Source: Desulfatiglandales bacterium
Lineage (GTDB): Bacteria; Desulfobacterota; DSM-4660; Desulfatiglandales; HGW-15
Length of the DNA: 45,135 nucleotides
NCBI GenBank assembly: GCA_030145585.1
Contig: JAQYVK010000604.1
Span: forward strand, 1 to 45,135
Reading direction: 5' to 3'
The notes under the pieces: generated by a model
The model's input: only the letters and a program-made list of their open reading frames with translations
Database searches by the model: none
Told to the model about the DNA's origin: nothing
Shown here: piece by piece, positions 29,833 through 40,784 of the stretch
Position numbering within the stretch: the stretch's first letter is position 1
Layout: each line of letters starts with the position of its first letter
Program-made: the position numbers and the translations under genes

Positions 29833-31038
29833 ATGAGAATTATCCTTTTTGCTGGAAAGGGAGGTGTCGGAAAAACGAGCATAGCGGCCGCCACAGGCAT
29901 AAAAGCGGCCGAAATGGGGAAGAAGACCGTCATCATGTCCCTGGATATTGCGCACAGCCTTTCCGACATTTTCGACCTGGAAAGGGGTTTGTTGGATAAA
30001 AACAAAGGGCGGCCGATCAAAATCAGCGAGAACCTGTGGATACAGGAACTGGATGTTCAAGAAGAGATAGAAAAAAACTGGGGCGGTATCCATAAATATA
30101 TTTCTACGCTACTCAATACCACGGGTCTGGATGAAATCCTGGCGGAAGAACTGGCCATTTTGCCCGGCATGGAAGAGGTCAGCCTGCTGCTCTATATTAA
30201 CCGTTACGTCCAGCAAAAAAAGTTTGATGTGATGATCCTCGACTGTGCACCCACGGGTGAATCCCTAAGGTTTATCAGTATTCCGACCACGCTCGAATGG
30301 TACATTTCGAAAGTCTTTAAAATGGAAAGGGCCCTTGCCAAATATGTTGGACCCGTGGCGAAGAGGCTGTATGACGTTCCGATTCCGGGTGATGACTATT
30401 TTGAGGCCATTTCAATTTTGTTTGAACGGTTGAAAGGGGTGGATCAAATCTTGGCGGATCCCGACATTACCACAGTTCGTCTTGTCACCAATCCGGAAAA
30501 GATTGTCTTAAAAGAGACCCAAAGGGCCCTGATGTATTTCTGTCTCTACAAGATGAACATAGATGGCATCATTATCAATCGTATTCTTCCGGAGGACATA
30601 AAGGACAACTATTTCAAAGGCTGGAGGGAAAGCCAAAAACATTACCTGGAGAAGGCAGAAGAATACTTTCGCCCCATCCCCATTTTTTACGTGAAACTCT
30701 TTCAAAACGAAATCCTGGGTTATGGCTCCCTTCAAAAATTGGCCGAACAAATCTATGAGGGCAAAGACCCCCTTGAACGGTTTTTTAAAGGGGAGCCCTA
30801 TCAACTGATCAAAGAGAATGGGGAGTACCGACTGATCATGAAACTTCCCTTCCTCGCGAAGGGGGATGTGGAACTCAATAAACTCTCAGACGAATTGATT
30901 ATTCGAATAGGTGGTTTTAAGAGGAGCGTGTTACTACCAAGACATGTGGCGTCCTCTAAATCGGTAAAAGCCAAATTGGAGGGTCAACATTTATCGATTT
31001 ATTTTAAAGGAGATGATCATGCCCAGAAAAATGAATGA
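29833..31038 (+). CDS. ArsA/GET3 family ATPase with a C-terminal HSP20-like domain
   Basis: GKGGVGKTS, SLDIAHSLSD, DCAPTGESLR; single ATPase domain plus beta-sandwich tail. Confidence 0.92.
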   Translation: MRIILFAGKGGVGKTSIAAATGIKAAEMGKKTVIMSLDIAHSLSDIFDLERGLLDKNKGRPIKISENLWIQELDVQEEIEKNWGGIHKYISTLLNTTGLDEILAEELAILPGMEEVSLLLYINRYVQQKKFDVMILDCAPTGESLRFISIPTTLEWYISKVFKMERALAKYVGPVAKRLYDVPIPGDDYFEAISILFERLKGVDQILADPDITTVRLVTNPEKIVLKETQRALMYFCLYKMNIDGIIINRILPEDIKDNYFKGWRESQKHYLEKAEEYFRPIPIFYVKLFQNEILGYGSLQKLAEQIYEGKDPLERFFKGEPYQLIKENGEYRLIMKLPFLAKGDVELNKLSDELIIRIGGFKRSVLLPRHVASSKSVKAKLEGQHLSIYFKGDDHAQKNE

Positions 31039-32656: not shown

Positions 32657-34462
32657 ATGGATGAAATAGAGAACATACAAATTGATTCACTGGGAGACTG
32701 GAAGAGGACCCATGACTGTGGCAGTCTGAGGGCCGAAGACGTGGGCCAAGAAGCCTTGTTGATGGGTTGGGTAAACAGTCGGAGGGACCTGGGCAATCTG
32801 ATTTTCATCGATCTTCGGAACAGGGGAGGCATCACCCAGATTGTATTTGATCCCCAGTTGGAGGAGGAAAGCCACAACAGGGCCCATATTTTGAGAAATG
32901 AGTGGGTCCTCGCCGTCAAGGGCAAGGTGACGCCGAGGCTTGAGGGTCAGGAAAATCAAGACCTGCCGACCGGAGCTATTGAGTTAAAGGTCACCCAACT
33001 CAAAATACTGAACAGGACCGAGGTCCCCCCCTTTCAAGTGGATGGGATGGTGGATGCATCGGAGACGCTGAGGCTCAAGTATCGATATCTGGAACTGAGA
33101 AGGCAGAAGATCTTCAAGAACTTTCAAAAGAGACATCATATCACCTCTTGTATCAGGGAATATCTAAACGAAAAGGGTTTTATAGAAGTGGAAACGCCTT
33201 TTCTGACCAAGAGCACGCCGGAAGGGGCTCGCGATTACCTGGTCCCGAGCAGGGTCAACAAGGGTCAGTTTTACGCACTGCCCCAGTCGCCCCAACTCTT
33301 TAAACAGCTCCTCATGATCGGCGGATTCGAACGGTATTACCAGGTGGTCCGATGCTTTCGAGATGAGGATCTCAGGGCAGACCGTCAACCGGAATTCACC
33401 CAGGTGGACATGGAACTGGCCTTTACGAATGAGGAAGAGGTGATGGAAATCTGTGAAGGCATGATGGCAACACTCTTCAGTAAGGTCATGGGGCGGGCAT
33501 TGTCCGAACCCATCCCGCGTCTGCCCTATCAGGAGGTGATGGACCGTTTCGGCACGGATAGACCGGACCTTCGATTCGGGATGGAACTGAAAGAGATTAC
33601 CGAGTTCCTCAAAGAGTCGGAATTTAAGAGCTTTCGCCGGGTCGTGGAAGAGGGCGGGGTCGTCAAGGCCATCAACGTGGATAAGGGCGCCACCAGCTTC
33701 TCAAGAAAGGGGCTGGATGAATTGACCCGTTTGGTGATTGATTGGGGAGGTAAGGGCCTTGCCTGGATCAAAGTAACTGAGGATGGGTGGCAGTCGTCCT
33801 TAAGTAAATTTTTCAGTGACGAAGAAAAGGAAGCCATCAATAAGCAACTAGATGGATCCCCGGGAGATTTGTATCTCATCGTGGCGGATCAGTCGCCGGT
33901 TGCCAATGAGGCCCTTGGAATGCTCAGGGGCGAGGTCGCCAGGAGATTGAACCGGATTAAGGAAGGGGATTTTGCCTTCGTTTGGGTCAACCGGTTCCCG
34001 CTGCTGGCCTATAACGAGACGGAGGGAAGATTGGAGGCCGTTCATCACCCTTTTACGGCCCCACTTGAAGAAGACCTTTCCCTGCTACAGGATCAACCGG
34101 AGAAGGTTCGGGCAAGGTCCTATGATCTTGTGTTGAACGGCACGGAGATCGGTGGGGGAAGCGTGAGGATCCATCAAATTTCCATGCAGCAAGAAATGTT
34201 TAAAATTTTAGGGATTCCCCAGAAAGAAGCGGAGCGAAAATTCGGTTTTTTGTTGGAAGCCTTAAAATATGGCGCTCCCCCACATGGGGGGATCGCTTTC
34301 GGCCTGGATCGTCTTGTGGCGATCCTGACAGGGGTCGATTCCATTAGAGAAATCATAGCCTTCCCGAAGACCCAGCGAGCGACCTGCCCCCTCACAGATG
34401 CCCCCTCTGGGGTGGGTGAGGATCAACTCGAAGAGCTCGGCCTCCGAACCCGTCAGGAATAG
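32657..34462 (+). CDS. aspS: Aspartate--tRNA ligase
   Basis: RTHDCG, TPEGARDYLVPSR, LPQSPQLFKQ, FRDEDLRADRQPEFTQ, PPHGGIAFGLDR. Confidence 0.98.
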   Translation: MDEIENIQIDSLGDWKRTHDCGSLRAEDVGQEALLMGWVNSRRDLGNLIFIDLRNRGGITQIVFDPQLEEESHNRAHILRNEWVLAVKGKVTPRLEGQENQDLPTGAIELKVTQLKILNRTEVPPFQVDGMVDASETLRLKYRYLELRRQKIFKNFQKRHHITSCIREYLNEKGFIEVETPFLTKSTPEGARDYLVPSRVNKGQFYALPQSPQLFKQLLMIGGFERYYQVVRCFRDEDLRADRQPEFTQVDMELAFTNEEEVMEICEGMMATLFSKVMGRALSEPIPRLPYQEVMDRFGTDRPDLRFGMELKEITEFLKESEFKSFRRVVEEGGVVKAINVDKGATSFSRKGLDELTRLVIDWGGKGLAWIKVTEDGWQSSLSKFFSDEEKEAINKQLDGSPGDLYLIVADQSPVANEALGMLRGEVARRLNRIKEGDFAFVWVNRFPLLAYNETEGRLEAVHHPFTAPLEEDLSLLQDQPEKVRARSYDLVLNGTEIGGGSVRIHQISMQQEMFKILGIPQKEAERKFGFLLEALKYGAPPHGGIAFGLDRLVAILTGVDSIREIIAFPKTQRATCPLTDAPSGVGEDQLEELGLRTRQE

Positions 34463-34543
34463 AAGCTTTTTTCAAGCACCAGAGCCAATTGGGGCGCCCT
34501 CCAAAAAGGATGAACCTACTTTTACTCTCCATTGCCTAAATGC
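34388..34543 (+). repeat. Left copy of a diverged direct repeat (aspS 3' end plus downstream DNA), island boundary
   Basis: 34439-34543 aligns with 40312-40419 at 82/108 positions by hand count. Confidence 0.8.
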
Positions 34544-34574
34544 ATCTACTATCCCCCTCCCTTGTAGTGAAAGT

Positions 34575-34933
34575 AAAAGGGGGTCAAATCTTTAAACTTC
34601 AGAAATATATTGATTAGTTTAATTTGGCTATATGGCTAGACCCCTAAGAATTCAATATCCTGGAGCTTATTACCACGTTATATGCAGAGGTAATGAGCAA
34701 AAGAAGATCTTCTGTTTGGATAAGGATTCATCCAGAAGAGAGCAACCAGCCCTGAAAGAATTAAGCAAAGTATTTGAACCGAAAGAATTGATTGAGCAAT
34801 TTATTCAAATAACAGGAGAAAGAAGGGAAGATATCTGTCGGCGCGGCAAAAACTCAACAGAGAGGGCTATGTTGATGGATTTGGCAAGATAATTAAGAAG
34901 TTGAATCATTTGTCAAGTTTAAAGACCCCTTTT
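34575..34933 (+). mobile_element. Internally deleted RAYT-type (Y1 HUH transposase) element with terminal inverted repeats
   Basis: Ends AAAAGGGGGTC-AAATC-TTTAAACTT / AAGTTTAAAGACCCCTTTT enclose ORF 34632-34892. Confidence 0.7.
34632..34892 (+). pseudogene. RAYT / Y1 transposase remnant
   Basis: Begins MARPLRIQYPGAYYHVICRGNEQKKIF but is only 86 aa and lacks the HUH motif and catalytic Tyr region. Confidence 0.8.
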
Positions 34934-34987
34934 CACAAAATTTTTGCGTATTCGGATTTTGAATTTGTTTCGGATTTCCGGACTTGG

Positions 34988-36487
34988 TTAGGTATAATTG
35001 ACAACCGCCGATTTTTTCTGCCCTTCTACCTCGACTGTTATCGACAATCTCTGTGCCATATCTATTGAGAACATTACCTCAATATCGACTTCACCAGCAC
35101 GTTTCGGAGCCAGATTATTGATGGGTATTTTTCCAATAAGAGAATGAGTCTTTTTTGAAATTTTTTTACCTGATCCCTGATAGACTCCTATGTCCAGTTT
35201 TTTAACATTATCCTTGGCAGTGGTGAACACTTGTTTGGCAGTGCAAGGCGCTTGGCGATTTGCAGGAATAAGCTCTTTGAAACGGTTCCCTGATGTTTTG
35301 AGTCCCAGGGCATGACAAGTTCGGGTTCGAATAACAATTTTTTTGTCAAAAAAATCGGTATTGTCGAGATAGGCGGCATACATTGCCGCACCTTCGGCGA
35401 TACTTGTGGATGGGTTAATATTACTCCATGTTTTTTCAGCGCCCAGGATATCATCCAGCAGGTTTTTTATGCATGGTATATGGCTTGAGCCACCAACTCG
35501 AATAACGCGATCAATATCAGAAGGGTTTAATTTGGAACTGGCCCAAAGACTATCTATAATTTTTGAAATCTTATCGAAATAGTCTTTTATGGATTTTTCG
35601 AATTCTTCACGGCTAATCGAAACTTCAATATGTTTATCAGGGAGTATAAACGGAACAGCAACATAGTAATCATTAGAGGCACTCAATGCGATCTTAGCCA
35701 ATGTTGACTGTTCTAGCAGGTTCTTTTGCGCCTTATTGAACAGTTTTGGTTCAATACCATCTAAGGAAACACCACTTTTTTCCAAAATAACATCCGCAAG
35801 ACATCTATCGAAGTCCATTCCACCCAGCCTGTCATCACCACTGCTGGCGAGGACCTCGAAAAATATTGTATCGCTTGTATGCTTAAGTTGAAACAATGTA
35901 AGATCAAAGGTGCCGCCCCCAAGATCAAAGACGAGAATTTTCTGGCTAAACTCTTTGTCAAAATGGTCCTCGCAAATTTGCAAGGCATAGGAAAGAGAAG
36001 CGGCAATTGGCTCTTGAATAATTCCAATACAATTAATATCTGTCATTTCAGCTGCCTTGCGTGTATTGTCCATCTGGTGCGCTTTGAAATAGCATGGAAC
36101 AGTGACAACACTGCCACGGCTGCTGAAAGTACCCGTCGGATATTTCATCTTGGCATCTTCATATATCTTTTCCAAAATCAAAGAAGAGAGTGTAATAGGA
36201 GTAAATTCTTTACCTCCAAGCATGACTTTCTGATTGCCATCATCCATAAGCCGTTTGACACCGACTATCATATTTTCCGGTATCATAAGTCCTTTGGTAT
36301 ATGCTATATGACCAACCAGAATTTCATCATTTTCCGGGTTGTAATAGACAACCGATTGAGTTATATCTTGACCCGCCCTGTTTTGAATGATTTGAGGTCC
36401 TTTCCTGTCCACCCATCTAGCTAATGCACTGAAGGTTGTACCTAAATCAAAGCCTAATACTGGATTAGTTTCGTTATCAATAGCCAT
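34988..36487 (-). CDS. Atypical Hsp70 family protein B (lid-less, basic substrate-binding domain)
   Basis: GFDLGTT, VKRLM, TVPCYF, QEPIAA, FDLGGGTFD, VGGSSHIP; ends directly after SBD-beta. Confidence 0.92.
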   Translation of the reverse strand: MAIDNETNPVLGFDLGTTFSALARWVDRKGPQIIQNRAGQDITQSVVYYNPENDEILVGHIAYTKGLMIPENMIVGVKRLMDDGNQKVMLGGKEFTPITLSSLILEKIYEDAKMKYPTGTFSSRGSVVTVPCYFKAHQMDNTRKAAEMTDINCIGIIQEPIAASLSYALQICEDHFDKEFSQKILVFDLGGGTFDLTLFQLKHTSDTIFFEVLASSGDDRLGGMDFDRCLADVILEKSGVSLDGIEPKLFNKAQKNLLEQSTLAKIALSASNDYYVAVPFILPDKHIEVSISREEFEKSIKDYFDKISKIIDSLWASSKLNPSDIDRVIRVGGSSHIPCIKNLLDDILGAEKTWSNINPSTSIAEGAAMYAAYLDNTDFFDKKIVIRTRTCHALGLKTSGNRFKELIPANRQAPCTAKQVFTTAKDNVKKLDIGVYQGSGKKISKKTHSLIGKIPINNLAPKRAGEVDIEVMFSIDMAQRLSITVEVEGQKKSAVVNYT

Positions 36488-36588
36488 CTAAAATCTCCTA
36501 ACGAGAAAATCAACGCAATTATATGCGCTTTGATTCTTTTTTTCTTCAAACCCATTATTCCGTTACCACGGAAGGCGTTACTTCACTA

Positions 36589-37770
36589 TTAATCATTATT
36601 CTTAATAACAACCACACGTGCAACGCGAAGCGTCTGCCGGTTTCCATTGTGAGCAACGTACTCATACCCATCCCTGCTGATCTCTTTAATTTGTTCGTTC
36701 TCCATCACAGGATCAGCCTCAACTGAAGAAGGTTCATGACGCTCAAAATCGATCATCATACCAGGCTCTATGTCCATCCGGTAAACACCTAGATCATTCA
36801 GCATGGTTAAAATGGTGCTGCTAAGTGTGAAATAGGTATTAAACCACTCACTTAATTTTGATTCTGATTCCTGATATTGCTCCATTAATTCATCTATCAG
36901 AATCGAAGTGGGATTCTTTCCATCGATAATACCATCAAGAATAGGGAGAACCTGTTTTCCAATGAAATCAAGCCATGTCTTTTGCCGTTTTTCAGCGAGG
37001 TCACCAGCTTTGGACACAAGTTTGTAGTTTGACCTTCTAATAATGTCCAGATTCTTGTTTATCTTTTTTTGTGCTGAATTCTCATTCATTTCACCTTCCA
37101 TAAGTTTCATCCACTCATCTTCCTCAAGCTCCTTTAAATTGTCAGCTAATTCGATTTCCTCTACCAGGCTTTTCAGTCGATCATCCTGATTAACCAAGCG
37201 TTGTAGCATCCGACCAATAATGTTGAGTCCCTGCTGGCTGCTTTCCAGCGCTTTTTTAAGTTCCTTTGACAGACTTTCCAGGATCTCATTGCTGTTTGCT
37301 ATAACGTCATCAGTAGCGTCTGCTGCCTCTTTGATCATGAGTTTCAGTCTTTTCCCACGCTCAAGCCAAAACTCGGCATTCTTTAGACACAGCTTAATAC
37401 TCTTTTCGTCATCTTTAATACTTTCCTGTTCTTCAGCCTTTGCCTGAGCGATCAAACCCTGGATATCTAAGACAGGTTCTTTTGAGACTATCTCTTTATC
37501 GGCCTTCACCGGAGAGGGTTGTGATTCTATCTGTTTCAGGTGCGAGCAAATTTCATCAAATTTTGCTTCAAGCTCCTTAAACCGTTCTTCAAGTTTATTA
37601 ATCCTGTCATCCCGATTTTCCAATTCTGCCTTAAGGCCTTCGATCTTTAAAGAAACCTTTTGCAATGGCTCCATTACAAAAGCTTGAAAGGCCTTGGTTA
37701 CTTCTTCGGCTTTCTCATCGTCAGGGAGGCTCTGATTATCTTCGGAAATATTGTTTTTTGTGGCGCTCAT
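36589..37770 (-). CDS. GrpE-like nucleotide exchange factor with a long N-terminal coiled-coil extension
   Basis: C-terminus VLPILDGI...LGVYRMDIEPGMMIDFERHE...RDGY...LRVARVVV follows the GrpE pattern; 393 aa. Confidence 0.75.
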   Translation of the reverse strand: MSATKNNISEDNQSLPDDEKAEEVTKAFQAFVMEPLQKVSLKIEGLKAELENRDDRINKLEERFKELEAKFDEICSHLKQIESQPSPVKADKEIVSKEPVLDIQGLIAQAKAEEQESIKDDEKSIKLCLKNAEFWLERGKRLKLMIKEAADATDDVIANSNEILESLSKELKKALESSQQGLNIIGRMLQRLVNQDDRLKSLVEEIELADNLKELEEDEWMKLMEGEMNENSAQKKINKNLDIIRRSNYKLVSKAGDLAEKRQKTWLDFIGKQVLPILDGIIDGKNPTSILIDELMEQYQESESKLSEWFNTYFTLSSTILTMLNDLGVYRMDIEPGMMIDFERHEPSSVEADPVMENEQIKEISRDGYEYVAHNGNRQTLRVARVVVIKNND

Positions 37771-38045
37771 AGCAGTTAATGTCCCCTTGATTGTGAAACA
37801 AATTTATTGGGACCATTTTGTATGGTTTTGAATTTCAATATTAATTAAACATCTCGGAAATTGTACAATCAAGAGCGCAAAGCTTCACTTCGTGTCCAGT
37901 ATTCCAACATTCTAAAGTTGGGATCCCGCCCCGGAGGGGCGGGAGGCTGAGCGGAGCAAAGCGAGCGCGAAGAATTGTGAGCGAAGCGAACGGTGTTCAA
38001 CAAATCCTGTTTTGCCGTAAGATTCCGTTATTCTTCGCGAACCGG

Positions 38046-39668
38046 TTACCGGCTTTTGTTATCTGGTGTAATCCTCTGTTGTCTATCAATGATGTTGGAC
38101 TCGCGGATTTCAAGCTCATCTGATGAACTGGAACTGCTTGCCTTTACTTTCAATAGATTTTGGCTGTCGATCTCAAATTCAACATCAATATTCTCTTCAC
38201 CACGTGGTTTTGGCGGGATCCCCTTAAGAAAGAATTCACCTATGCACTTAGCGCTATCAGATGATACATATTCAACATCTTCAGAGGACTGAAACACTAT
38301 AATAGCCAACTCTGTGATATTGTCTTCCGGCGTTGTATACTCTTTACTGACGGTAACGGGGCCCTCCGCCGGTATCTCCGTATCCTTAGGTATCAGACAG
38401 TTAAATTTGCCTCCAACAACTTCGATACCCAGGTTGTGAGTGACAATATTATCGATGTCGATCACAAATTCAGGAGTGTCTTCTTCAGGACGTTCCAATT
38501 CAGGATCCGGCAACATCATAGTAGCCCCGAGTATGGCGGCGCCTCGAGCTATTGCAGTATCCGGATCTGTATCAGAATAAGGTTCTTTTCCGAACATTTC
38601 ATGCAACATTTCTTTTACCAATGGGATCTTACTGGAACCGCCGACAAGGATGATCCTATCAATATCTTCAATCTCAAATTTTGCAGCACTTAAAGCCTTT
38701 TCAACTGAATCCTTGGTTTGAAGTATCAGGTCATGGATTTCTTCATTGAATTGTTCCCGGGTGATCTCAAAATTATCTATATGGTGAGGCTGCCCGGTCT
38801 CGTCATGGATGAAGTTAGGGATATCGATTGAGGTCGTGGTTGCTTCGGAGAGTTCATGTTTTGCAGCAATTACTGCTTCAAGCAGTTTTTGTTGAGCTTC
38901 TCTGGCTTCTTTAGTGATTCCCTGGTCCTTATCTGGATCATAAATATCGATATTGGATGCCTTGGCAAACTCGCCGGCCACTCTTTTCATAATCCTTTGG
39001 TCAAAATCATCTCCGCCCAGCTTTTGAATGCCTTCCTTTGCAAGAACTTTAAACTGTTTGTTGGCATTTCCTGTGGAGTCGACTTCAAGGATAGAAACAT
39101 CAAATGTACCGCCACCAAGATCATAGACAAGAACTGTCTGAACCCGCTCTTTTTCGAGAGCGTATGCATACGCAGCAGCTATAGGCTCTTCTAACAGGGT
39201 TAACATCTCAAGATTAGCAAGTTCTCCAGCCATTTGAGTTGCTTTCTTTTGTGCATCATTGAAATTAGCGGGTACACAAATAACAGCATACTTCGGGGTG
39301 CCGCCGAGATCGACCGTTTCATTTTGTAGAATACCGTCGATCAATTTCGAAAGAATTTCAGCGGAAACCTCCACTGGTGTAAAGACCTTCCCTGGAATCT
39401 CTTCAAACTCCTTTTCCCAGTCTGTCGCCATATGCCGCTTTATCGACGAGACTGTGCTTTCTGGCGCAATTAAATTGCGAGACTTTGCCTGGCTGCCAAC
39501 GAGAATTTCGCCGTCTTTTAGGACAGACATGACAGACGGCATAGTCTTGGTGCCATTAATATTAATGATTTCAGGCTCTCCCGTTTTATAGATCCCGGCT
39601 GCACAATTGGTTGTCCCAAGATCGATTCCTAAAACATAGCTGCTGGATTTTTCAACTAATGCGGTCAT
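38046..39668 (-). CDS. Atypical Hsp70 family protein A (lid-less, acidic substrate-binding domain)
   Basis: GIDLGTTN, IKRHM, VPANFNDAQ, EEPIAAA, YDLGGGTFD, LVGGSSKIP; GGAGG RBS; ends shortly after SBD-beta. Confidence 0.93.
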   Translation of the reverse strand: MTALVEKSSSYVLGIDLGTTNCAAGIYKTGEPEIININGTKTMPSVMSVLKDGEILVGSQAKSRNLIAPESTVSSIKRHMATDWEKEFEEIPGKVFTPVEVSAEILSKLIDGILQNETVDLGGTPKYAVICVPANFNDAQKKATQMAGELANLEMLTLLEEPIAAAYAYALEKERVQTVLVYDLGGGTFDVSILEVDSTGNANKQFKVLAKEGIQKLGGDDFDQRIMKRVAGEFAKASNIDIYDPDKDQGITKEAREAQQKLLEAVIAAKHELSEATTTSIDIPNFIHDETGQPHHIDNFEITREQFNEEIHDLILQTKDSVEKALSAAKFEIEDIDRIILVGGSSKIPLVKEMLHEMFGKEPYSDTDPDTAIARGAAILGATMMLPDPELERPEEDTPEFVIDIDNIVTHNLGIEVVGGKFNCLIPKDTEIPAEGPVTVSKEYTTPEDNITELAIIVFQSSEDVEYVSSDSAKCIGEFFLKGIPPKPRGEENIDVEFEIDSQNLLKVKASSSSSSDELEIRESNIIDRQQRITPDNKSR

Positions 39669-39743
39669 TTTGTTCCTCCGTTTAATTCGTTCATTATATT
39701 TTGATTTCCCTTTAAAAATTCTTAAGTGTGCTTTTTATTTGTC

Positions 39744-39759
39744 TGCGAACATCGTGCCA
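39744..39759 (-). promoter_or_regulatory. Putative sigma54 (-24/-12) promoter of the Hsp70 cassette
   Basis: TGGCACGATGTTCGCA, GG-N10-GC spacing, one mismatch to TGGCACG-N4-TTGCA, 75 bp upstream of the ATG. Confidence 0.65.
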
Positions 39760-40260
39760 AACTGTTAGCATCTGGAAATTGCATTAGATATCAAATAGAT
39801 ATGAAGATGACTCCAAATTTCCGGTCTGAAACGTGTTTATAAATTGACAATTCAATCAAAAAAGTGGCCAGGCAGACACATATTGACCATTGGGAGCGTA
39901 TCTGCTCACTTACGCATTGACAAAAATGGTCCGGACGTTCGTGCAGAACATGCATATATGAAAAGATAAGAAGTGGCTATTTCAAAGCGGATGAATCGAG
40001 AATGGTGACTTGTGTATCGGTTTCAACTGCAGCACAACATATTGAAGTGCCCATTAATGCAAACAATAATTATCCGAACAACCAAGCAGGTTTTGTTGTT
40101 AAGATTAATTTTTTTACGCCGGGGAACTTACGTCCTTAGGCAATTAAATAACTCAGCCAGAAGAGATAATTGTAAAATAGAAGCCTGTTCAAATGATAGA
40201 ATAGTTTGTGAATTACTAAAGGATTGTCCCCCATTTCACTAATCCGAAGATAATCAGAAC

Positions 40261-40419
40261 CCCCTTCTCACAAGCCCATGTGATGCGCCCAGACGGTGGC
40301 TTGACGCCACAGGGCTTCGCACCCTTCAGGAATAGCAGCTCTTTTCCCGACCCAAAGCCAACTTGGACACGCTCCTTAAAAACGGATGAACCTCCAATTA
40401 CTCTCCGTTGCCAGAATGC
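40261..40419 (+). repeat. Right copy of the direct repeat: degenerate aspS 3' fragment plus downstream DNA
   Basis: 40261-40335 reads PLLTSPCDAPRRWLDATGLRTLQE*, colinear with AspS PLTDAPSGVGEDQLEELGLRTRQE*. Confidence 0.8.
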
Positions 40420-40481
40420 GCCACATATTTTTCTTGACAGGTGATTCTATTTGAGAGATAAATTAGGGTTCTTAATTTTCA

Positions 40482-40784
40482 ATGGACAGAAAGGATGTGA
40501 TACCCATGGTTTGTACCAGTGTAAAGGAAGGGACGGAATGTTCCTTCATGGGCAGCAAAGGCTGTCAATTTAATGGGGGCAACTGCCACCCCATAACTGA
40601 GAAATGTGAAGGCTGCCAAAAGGTTGTTAAAAGACCCTCCGGCGATTACTGCCTGGCTTTTCCGGACCCGACCATCAAATGGCGATTCGGAAACTGCAGT
40701 ATGGCTACCCATATGAAGGCCAAGGACGAGAAGAAAAACGGGAAAGTCAATCCCCTCAAGGCCTCGAAGCGGCGAGCCCACTAA
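40482..40784 (+). CDS. PxxKW family cysteine-rich protein
   Basis: Cys-rich, with YCLAFPDPTIKWRFGNCSMATH and a KVNPLKASKR tail. Confidence 0.88.
   Translation: MDRKDVIPMVCTSVKEGTECSFMGSKGCQFNGGNCHPITEKCEGCQKVVKRPSGDYCLAFPDPTIKWRFGNCSMATHMKAKDEKKNGKVNPLKASKRRAH

Follow-up and report, generated by a model that had tools for sequence, protein, structure and literature searches.

Why should a bacterium carry two extra Hsp70 genes, placed on either side of a gene for a GrpE-like protein and accompanied by no gene for a J-protein? The question is raised by a stretch of 45,135 nucleotides from Desulfatiglandales bacterium (NCBI GenBank assembly GCA_030145585.1, contig JAQYVK010000604.1), which we call the window. 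A sequence-only reading had pointed there to three co-oriented genes, here named hspA, grpEL and hspB, encoding proteins of 540, 393 and 499 aa, and had proposed a dedicated, horizontally acquired module; the gene limits and lengths agree exactly with that proposal, all three genes lying on the minus strand. Our results leave little doubt that the trio is a real functional module, and it is best read as the minimal core of a larger family of multi-Hsp70 systems, a point that goes beyond the sequence-only reading. It appears to be a machine of Hsp70 and exchange factor that has been taken into a system of many genes. Its role aside, we lean slightly towards describing it as a horizontally acquired machine of two Hsp70s that would have its own GrpE-type exchange factor and would work independently of J-proteins.

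Both outer genes code for Hsp70 proteins: Pfam HSP70 (PF00012) matches HspA at E 3.8e-111 and HspB at E 2.7e-87, and the best solved relatives of HspB are DnaK chains (E 1.2e-63, residues 10-493 covered). Their mutual divergence, claimed from the beginning, is borne out by an identity of 32% (168/519). With the NCBIfam models, HspA and HspB stay below every cut-off, scoring 394.1 and 290.7 bits for DnaK (TIGR02350 / NF001413, cut-off 648), 338.5 and 278.8 bits for HscA (cut-off 708.55), and 74.9 and 55.3 bits for YegD (NF008673, cut-off 331). The Pfam matches end at profile positions 497 (HspA) and 491 (HspB) of 599, which means that the C-terminal helical lid is missing; both proteins stop about 5-35 residues past the last strand of the beta-sandwich substrate-binding domain (SBD-beta), which is present in the two of them and aligns with DnaK up to about residue 502.

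The residues that drive the Hsp70 cycle were compared in an alignment with E. coli DnaK, HscA and HscC and with the orthologues from the 24 related loci described below. DnaK residues D8, K70, E171, D194, T199 and D201, which we take to be catalytic, are all kept in 22/22 HspB rows; among the HspA rows D8 is kept in 21/23, the other two being gapped at the N-terminus, K70 in 22/23, and E171, D194, T199 and D201 in 23/23. The positions of the SBD pocket (F/Y426, 436 and 438) remain hydrophobic in both proteins. The positions of R167, N170 and T173, which are presumably J-domain contacts in DnaK, are changed: the first is Y, S or T in HspA (R in 3/23) and G in 22/22 HspB rows, the second is E in 22/23 HspA and Q in 22/22 HspB rows, and the third is V or I in the two proteins. 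The linker of HspA between the nucleotide-binding domain (NBD) and the SBD is about 17 residues longer than that of DnaK, and there is an insert in subdomain IIB. DVLLLD, given as the linker of DnaK in the part of a recent article that we draw on (FEBS J 2026, PMC13580251), is not conserved in HspA or HspB.

As the sequence-only reading had it, the inserted islet lacks a J domain: the five matches to PF00226 in the genome all lie on other contigs. In searches of the whole genomes of five related loci with the same profile, none was found inside three of the loci (L025, L031 and L035); L017 and L019 are left out of this count, as their contig numbers could not be assigned to the locus. A local hidden Markov model, built from the five J domains of the window's own genome plus E. 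coli DnaJ and HscB, missed the control DjlB/DjlC in locus L048, and its negative result for the 24 loci and the window was discarded. From the changed contact positions, the lost linker and the islet free of J domains we infer that the trio may be J-independent.

The same proteins could be thought of as Hsp110-like co-chaperones, in which HspA and/or HspB, no chaperones in their own right, would use their NBDs to associate with the housekeeping DnaK or among themselves and serve as exchange factors or disaggregation boosters. This role has been proposed for NBD-containing DnaK paralogues, in the section of the article used here (FEBS J 2026, PMC13580251), and the linkers of HspA and HspB have diverged from VLLLD, as is described for Hsp110. 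However, a complete SBD-beta with its hydrophobic pocket and all the catalytic residues are kept, the cassette's own GrpE-type exchange factor would be redundant, and the Hsp70 pair is always co-inherited with the GrpE-like gene and not with dnaK, so we regard this explanation as quite improbable.

Is the middle protein, then, a GrpE? The Pfam GrpE profile (PF01025) matches residues 236-390 with 20.8 bits, under the gathering score of 25.8, yet the family profile, the predicted fold and the relatives agree with the GrpE-like character assigned to it before. The Pfam threshold is passed by all ten longer relatives scanned (35.6-58.3 bits), and many close relatives carry a precomputed PF01025 match; the best solved sequence for a 65-sequence profile of the grpEL family is the Geobacillus GrpE 4ANI (E 0.0026). 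In an AlphaFold2 model (pLDDT 90.2, pTM 0.72), helices at 230-298 and 300-326 are followed by strands at 329-389. The top Foldseek matches of this model are chains A and B of 1DKG (E 1.1e-4 and 1.7e-4, probability 1.00), and next come human GrpEL1 and then the Thermus and Geobacillus GrpE proteins. VIA-align superposes the model on 1DKG_B (Z 10.7, 142/151 residues aligned, model 225-391), 9BLT_C (Z 10.4, 155/159 residues, model 225-392) and 4ANI_A (Z 10.0, 147/156 residues, model 225-390). Taken together, these lines confirm residues 225-393 as a GrpE module at the level of a predicted fold, and this module probably acts on HspA and/or HspB.

The first 224 residues of the grpEL protein are extra to GrpE and consist of a variable helix (18-83) and a conserved helical domain (100-224) with a conserved W135 and the motif QxGLNIIGRMLxR around 179-191; helices 103-166 and 169-194 are modelled with pLDDT >95, and structure comparison of this domain returned only generic similarities to helical bundles. 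A profile search of 1.84 billion cluster representatives gave a family of 442 members at E<=1e-3, 227 at E<=1e-10 and 116 at E<=1e-30, about 320-750 aa long, most of them matching from about profile position 100 to the end. Ordinary GrpE proteins are expected to be far more numerous than 442, so they probably fall for the most part outside the profile of this family. We place no weight on a complex prediction with the two NBDs and grpEL residues 228-393, which gave ipSAE values of 0.00 and 0.00 and had no controls.

Our genome scan covered one genome per species and returned 33 loci, 24 of which (L013-L036) have a clear grpEL relative with Hsp70 genes around it; because the scan reaches only loci that carry two short peptide patterns, 24 is a lower bound and may be biased. 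A gene of the HspA type lies immediately upstream of the grpEL relative in 23 of these 24 loci and one of the HspB type immediately downstream in all of them, the latter being partial in L030, at a contig end, and truncated to 175 residues in the Ectobacillus locus L032. The hosts, as titled in the records and labelled in the tree, belong to six named phyla (Thermodesulfobacteriota, Candidatus Moduliflexota, Cyanobacteriota, Planctomycetota, Armatimonadota and Bacillota); many, such as Desulfonema, Vecturithrix, Pseudanabaena and Argonema, we take to be filamentous or otherwise multicellular. Candidatus Magnetomoraceae are listed in the search that gave the 103 grpEL relatives mentioned below. 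None of the genes that flank the trio in the window has a homologue near any of the 24 loci, which indicates that the cassette moves as a unit. The order HspA-GrpE-HspB is thus conserved well beyond the window, which speaks against a chance assembly and for the dedicated module that had been suggested.

Two of these loci depart from the rule. In Desulfonema magnum (L016, 6185-9451) there is no HspA and two ABC-type ATPase genes (539 and 547 aa) lie upstream of grpEL; one type of ATPase may have been replaced by another. In Ectobacillus funiculus (L032, 10479-11567) the first 175 residues of hspB apparently run, within one frame of 362 aa, into the family of the kinase-like genes described below, and this hspB looks like a decayed copy. 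We left out loci L037-L045, whose genes are probably ordinary ones of the GrpE type: the match takes in no more than about 70-135 residues at the C-terminus (E 1e-6 to 3e-4), seven of them are without a nearby Hsp70 and two have a single one.

A maximum likelihood tree of 76 Hsp70 sequences (quick search, LG+G4, YegD as outgroup) contains four position-specific clades, with support given as the Shimodaira-Hasegawa-like approximate likelihood ratio (SH-aLRT): HspA (23 rows, SH-aLRT 92), HspB (22 rows, SH-aLRT 100, stem 0.91), HspC, which is fused to a vWA domain (8 rows, SH-aLRT 100), and HspD (17 rows, SH-aLRT 99). The HspA and HspB clades show matching branching, and E. coli DnaK, HscA and HscC group apart with the DnaK of the window's own genome (SH-aLRT 87). 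Judged from this tree, HspA and HspB are separate from DnaK, HscA, HscC and YegD, and so appear to lie outside the characterised clades in which the sequence-only reading had asked whether they would fall; a distant membership in an HscC-like group is possible, each of these families having a single reference.

How did the trio reach this genome? The assembly (623 contigs, 83.5% complete) has, all on other contigs, a DnaK (920 bits) and a GrpE (156 bits) of the canonical type and five open reading frames (ORFs) with a J domain; the trio is therefore an extra system and, as had been argued, not the general heat-shock operon. Of the seven relatives from which the corresponding stretch was fetched, three (G001, G005 and G007) have hisS, aspS, the DUF6811 gene, FtsJ, dxs and ispA contiguous without the trio, and their aspS and DUF6811 matches are about 150-210 nt apart, against 6.0 kb in the window; the stretch fetched from the other four shows hisS and aspS and none of the other genes of the block. 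On either side of an insert of 5.87 kb there is a copy of a direct repeat about 105 nt long; the two copies share 74-80% identity at a spacing of 5873-5876 nt, and they look like an att-type duplication or a recombination scar; no integrase is present. The composition is foreign. The trio has GC 0.40-0.44 and GC at third codon positions (GC3) 0.37-0.42, against GC 0.51-0.52 and GC3 0.57-0.62 in aspS, hisS, dxs and ispA, which agrees with the AT-richness noted earlier, and GC3 is 0.53-0.62 in the neighbour genes of the window; the interior bounded by the repeats (34544-40311) has GC 0.411 and its flanks 0.497 and 0.513. The grpEL gene is found in 0/60 relatives of the same family or order and in 1/400 other genomes sampled across the phylum (E<=1e-10). 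Synteny, repeats, composition and sporadic distribution support a recent horizontal acquisition of the trio, the origin for which the sequence-only reading had argued. No tRNA or other non-coding RNA that could mark an integration site was found in the window. Carriage by a phage or plasmid was set aside, as grpEL is without a match in plasmid, phage and viral-contig collections. The features of the insert and of the trio are collected in Table 1.

Table 1. Positions of the trio, of the parts of its middle protein and of the inserted islet in the window.
Feature	Position (nt)	Strand	Remarks
hspA	38046-39668	-	540 aa; lid-less Hsp70 with NBD, linker, SBD-beta and short Ser-rich tail
grpEL (extended GrpE-like protein)	36589-37770	-	393 aa; middle gene of the trio
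hspB	34988-36487	-	499 aa; lid-less Hsp70, stops directly past the last SBD-beta strand
GrpE-homologous module of grpEL, residues 225-393	36592-37098	-	Predicted long helix, helical bundle and beta domain
Family-specific helical middle domain of grpEL, residues 100-224	37099-37473	-	From conserved alignment columns and the predicted model
N-terminal long helix of grpEL, residues 18-83	37522-37719	-	Length and sequence variable across the family
Imperfect direct repeat, left copy	34439-34543		Spans the last 24 nt of aspS and the next 81 nt
Imperfect direct repeat, right copy	40312-40419		Directly upstream of the DUF6811 gene
Whole inserted islet	34463-40481		From the aspS stop to the DUF6811 start; trio, one 86-aa ORF and leader
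86-aa ORF in the islet	34632-34892	+	No Pfam match; no homologue in the 24 related loci
Non-coding leader upstream of hspA	39669-40481		813 nt

Is the inserted trio still in use? Its three frames are intact, and the ratio of nonsynonymous to synonymous substitution rates (dN/dS) against the relatives L013-L015, with the same minimal trio, is 0.11-0.18 for hspA, 0.25-0.43 for grpEL and 0.11-0.26 for hspB; the trio is under purifying selection. These values bear directly on the view that the window holds a decaying remnant of a larger system, which would have lost its effectors and all function. The window copy does lack every accessory gene seen in other phyla, there is no integrase, and hspB is truncated in the Ectobacillus locus. 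However, besides the intact frames and the constrained substitution ratios there are 103 relatives of the grpEL protein, mostly of 388-425 aa and 66-99% identical, mainly from metagenome assemblies; and near-identical DNA, amounting to about half of the sampled words of the trio stretch, is present in DNA runs of 11 studies of marine sediment, seawater and cold seep, one of which may be the source. In three metatranscriptome studies there are contigs, 90-99% alike, that cover hspA, grpEL and hspB; they are a weak hint of expression and no proof of transcription, and their differences in depth and uncovered flanks are unusable as evidence. We consider a remnant very improbable.

What lies around the core in other genomes suggests what kind of system it belongs to. 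At least three Hsp70s are present in 19/24 loci, and just two in the window, in L014 and possibly in the short or cut contigs L013 and L026; an HspD paralogue occurs in 17/24 and an Hsp70-vWA fusion in 8/24. A trypsin-like peptidase of 183-232 aa is found in 8/24 loci (Pfam Trypsin_2, E 2.2e-32), and PADLOC likens it to the protease part of RT-Protease_XI (1.2e-22). Downstream, 14/24 loci have a kinase-like protein whose C-terminus is swapped, InlB B-repeats being found in 8 loci and TcaA-type NTF2 domains, after a transmembrane stretch, in 6 loci of Bacillaceae; the Chthonomonadaceae locus has a second kinase-like gene, fused to an FGE-sulfatase domain. By our reading of the motifs, 12/12 of the kinase-like domains that were aligned have residues other than Asp where the HRD and DFG aspartates would stand, so that these proteins look like pseudokinases. 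They match the PADLOC models MkoA, PD-T4-6 and STK_OB (1.7e-81 for STK_OB in L026), the last of which we take to belong to TerY-P. A vWA-like protein of about 300 aa is present in two or three copies in 5/24 loci (vWA/TerF-like folds in the ESM Atlas, TM 0.55-0.57, taken as a lead only), and there is a vWA-TerF-like protein in the UASB270 locus (L017). A Pfam scan of 30 neighbour genes at related loci showed no GTPase, no phosphatase and no J domain.

Some further observations concern these extended loci. A 690-aa relative of the grpEL protein (P0175) has in its N-terminal extension an InlB B-repeat, the domain also present on pseudokinase C-termini. In L015 (12631-14328) a fourth Hsp70-like gene of 565 aa lies directly past hspB, has only an NBD according to Pfam and forms the longest branch of the tree. 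In Priestia abyssalis (L031, 14372-15103) a PspA/IM30 membrane-stress gene follows the membrane-anchored pseudokinase, in this locus only, and one neighbour in L021 has TPR repeats and a 2OG oxygenase domain and is not conserved. Three generic trypsin-like genes about 40% identical to the peptidase lie on three other contigs of the window's genome (C522:34238-34744, C88:4655-5161 and C399:588-1055).

We propose the following working cycle for the trio. HspA and HspB would split ATP and take up peptide segments, in extended form, through their beta domains; with no lid over the SBDs, binding and release would be fast, allowing a reversible sampling of segments that fits sensing over holding. 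The GrpE module would reset HspA and/or HspB through ADP release. As the two Hsp70s lack the J-contact positions and the VLLLD linker of DnaK, we propose that no J-protein is needed for the cycle. HspA and HspB may be coupled in one heteromeric assembly by that helical half of the grpEL protein which is specific to its family; this would account for the constant presence of precisely these two beside grpEL. The exchange activity on the neighbouring Hsp70s, the heteromeric complex and the biological role are all putative.

Which role would such a cycle serve? A plain specialised chaperone is a serious rival to any sensing role. On this explanation the trio would fold, hold or remodel a single client or a class of them under a particular stress, as HscA-HscB attends to IscU, and would take no part in conflict or signalling; the accessory genes of other lineages would be lineage-specific clients. 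Each of the three proteins is a member of a chaperone family, effector-like genes are missing from the window copy and from its closest relatives L013-L015, the neighbours in the window are housekeeping genes, and a cyanobacterial DnaK1-DnaJ3-GrpE system is described, in the text available to us, as having a specific cellular task (PMC9239167). Nevertheless, the distribution is sporadic and rare, and the window copy is a recent insertion; there is no conserved putative client, the flanking genes differing in every lineage; and the J-contact positions are lost. The recurring vWA proteins, trypsin-like protease and pseudokinase with its swapped sensor resemble regulated, conflict-type parts and not metabolic clients. 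We think this rival unlikely on balance, though clearly less so than the remnant or the Hsp110-like role.

Our tentative preference, which falls short of a probability, is for a regulated sensing or conflict-type (or envelope-stress) role of the family over general folding. It is favoured because the vWA, protease and pseudokinase partners, the last with a swappable ligand-binding domain, resemble in their logic the chaperone-vWA conflict systems described by Kaur et al. (2020), and also because of the likeness to lid-less DnaK-like sensors fused to protease-effector modules. A stronger version, which we hold as doubtful, makes the trio the ATP-driven core of an immune or danger-sensing system built on chaperones, an Hsp70 counterpart of the MoxR-vWA ternary systems. 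The Hsp70s would then sample foreign or misfolded polypeptides, for instance phage proteins or envelope damage relayed by the variable domain of the pseudokinase; cycling timed by GrpE would license the vWA proteins and the trypsin-like protease to act; and the three-gene form of the window would be a mobile, stand-alone version that uses host factors.

Several points weigh against the reading of the trio as a mobile, J-independent machine of a conflict-type family. The grpEL protein is unmatched in the collections of plasmids and phages (both by tblastn) and in that of viral contigs, and the islet is without an integrase. The neighbours of the trio are housekeeping genes, as is the rest of the window, so the trio is not in a defence island, and the co-location that the sequence-only reading had suggested looking for was not found at this copy. 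The islet itself has no effector-like, vWA, protease or kinase-like partner, and the pseudokinase, vWA-like and vWA-TerF partners of other loci are unmatched by tblastn in the window's 83.5%-complete genome, so the conflict reading draws on relatives in other phyla. PADLOC-DB 2.0 returned for the Hsp70s only weak, partial NBD matches to PDC-M61B (26.7 and 34.5 bits); it also gave a partial coiled-coil match to JetC (16.5 bits). The Pfam GrpE score of the window's own protein is sub-threshold. The tree comes from a quick search with single references for HscA, HscC and YegD, and the HspA clade has SH-aLRT 92. The argument for J-independence uses the roles that the changed residues are taken to have in DnaK, and the five J-proteins of the genome could still serve the trio.

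The surroundings of the trio gave some further information. The ATG of hspA has a GGAGG ribosome-binding site just 5' of it, inside a GGGAGG/CGGAGG block common to L014 and L015, and the rest of the leader shows no conservation. The spacer between hspA and grpEL (37771-38045) is 275 nt in the window and about 65 nt in L014; RNA-library contigs of two runs skip about 60 nt of it (37906/37912-37973), which suggests length variants among strains. Regulation by HrcA and CIRCE was set aside, since no CIRCE-like operator occurs anywhere in the window at <=3 mismatches. There is no hrcA among the islet ORFs of at least 80 aa, all of which are accounted for or lie inside or antisense to the trio, no search dedicated to hrcA having been made. 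Scans for promoters and terminators gave no more, or hardly more, than shuffled sequence would, and we make no use of them. Beyond the right repeat, the DUF6811 gene (40482-40784, plus strand) encodes a Cys-rich protein of 100 aa; as it adjoins aspS in the three relatives with full synteny, it is part of the native locus, outside the insert. Upstream of hisS, at 29833-31038 (plus strand), there is an ArsA-type ATPase with a C-terminal HSP20-like domain, conserved in G007.

What would the trio add to our understanding of Hsp70s? In the textbook, Hsp70s need a J domain to work, and a cassette without a J-protein contradicts this requirement. Many bacterial Hsp70 'derivates' have no assigned role, according to the part of the article drawn on here (FEBS J 2026, PMC13580251), and one group of them now has a context that is defined and can be tested, namely a constant pair of Hsp70s without lids, together with an exchange factor of their own. 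If the sensing or conflict reading is true, a chaperone-driven class would be added to the prokaryotic immune-like systems, with a minimal three-gene version on offer for biochemistry; if the trio is a specialised chaperone, it would be a compact natural experiment in Hsp70 cycling without lid and J-protein.

We found no description of this cassette in the full-text literature; subscription journals and supplementary tables, such as those of Kaur et al. (2020), were outside our reach, and a prior mention is possible. With the canonical DnaK-DnaJ-GrpE machine the trio shares an Hsp70 NBD with its catalytic residues, an SBD-beta and an exchange factor of predicted GrpE fold. It differs in having two divergent Hsp70s, no lid, no VLLLD linker, changed J-contacts, neither a J-protein gene nor CIRCE, and a grpEL protein of twice the usual GrpE length. 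HscA-HscB and HscC-DjlC are alike, as far as the sources used describe them, in being specialised Hsp70 paralogues with shortened lids and an adjoining gene for their own co-chaperone; however, their partner is a J-protein and they have no exchange factor of their own, the reverse of the trio. The Hsp70-like proteins of CoCoNuT / CnuD were ruled out on their McrBC context and degenerate ATPase motifs, as given in the portion of the source consulted (PMC11090510).

Other likenesses concern the extended relatives. The TerY-P-type triad (vWA, PP2C and Ser/Thr kinase) is absent from the window, and the relatives have vWA and kinase-like genes with no phosphatase seen. In E. coli K-12 (L049, 9675-15129) yegD, the product of which is an Hsp70 NBD, has as its neighbours yegI (Ser/Thr kinase), pphC (PP2C) and yegL (vWA). 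The linkage of an atypical gene of the Hsp70 family to kinase-family and vWA genes is common to this locus and the extended relatives; in contrast, YegD is an NBD only, there is no GrpE and a phosphatase is present, whereas the kinase-like genes of the trio's relatives look catalytically dead. Another likeness is to the lid-less DnaK-like domains fused to EACC1-protease defence modules, for which the part of the preprint that we cite suggests a sensing of misfolded proteins without refolding (bioRxiv 10.1101/2025.11.14.688446). There, too, a lid-less Hsp70 goes together with a protease, in what is predicted to be a module of death or defence, but the DnaK-like part is fused and about 50% identical to DnaK, the protease is a cysteine protease and the described modules have no GrpE, whereas the trio has free-standing Hsp70 paralogues with a dedicated GrpE-like factor, and the protease of its relatives is trypsin-like.

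The nearest published item, with the neighbourhood tables of its supplement not covered, is the HSP70-GrpE theme of the GAP1-N2 GTPase conflict systems (Kaur, Burroughs, Iyer, Aravind, eLife 2020, PMC7159879), which the text available to us places mainly in actinobacteria and firmicutes, these systems being tied to a multicellular habit. As described there, the theme differs from the trio in its centre, a GAP1-N2 GTPase, in an FNIII protein fused to DnaJ or TPR, and in a second Hsp70 without the peptide-binding domain, whereas HspA and HspB both keep SBD-beta; no GAP1-N2-type GTPase, J or FNIII protein was found in the window or among the annotated neighbours of the relatives. What the two have in common, within that same text, is an HSP70 and a GrpE encoded together, sometimes with a second Hsp70-type gene, in a predicted conflict system, and the sister themes share with the relatives of the trio their vWA, kinase and trypsin parts.

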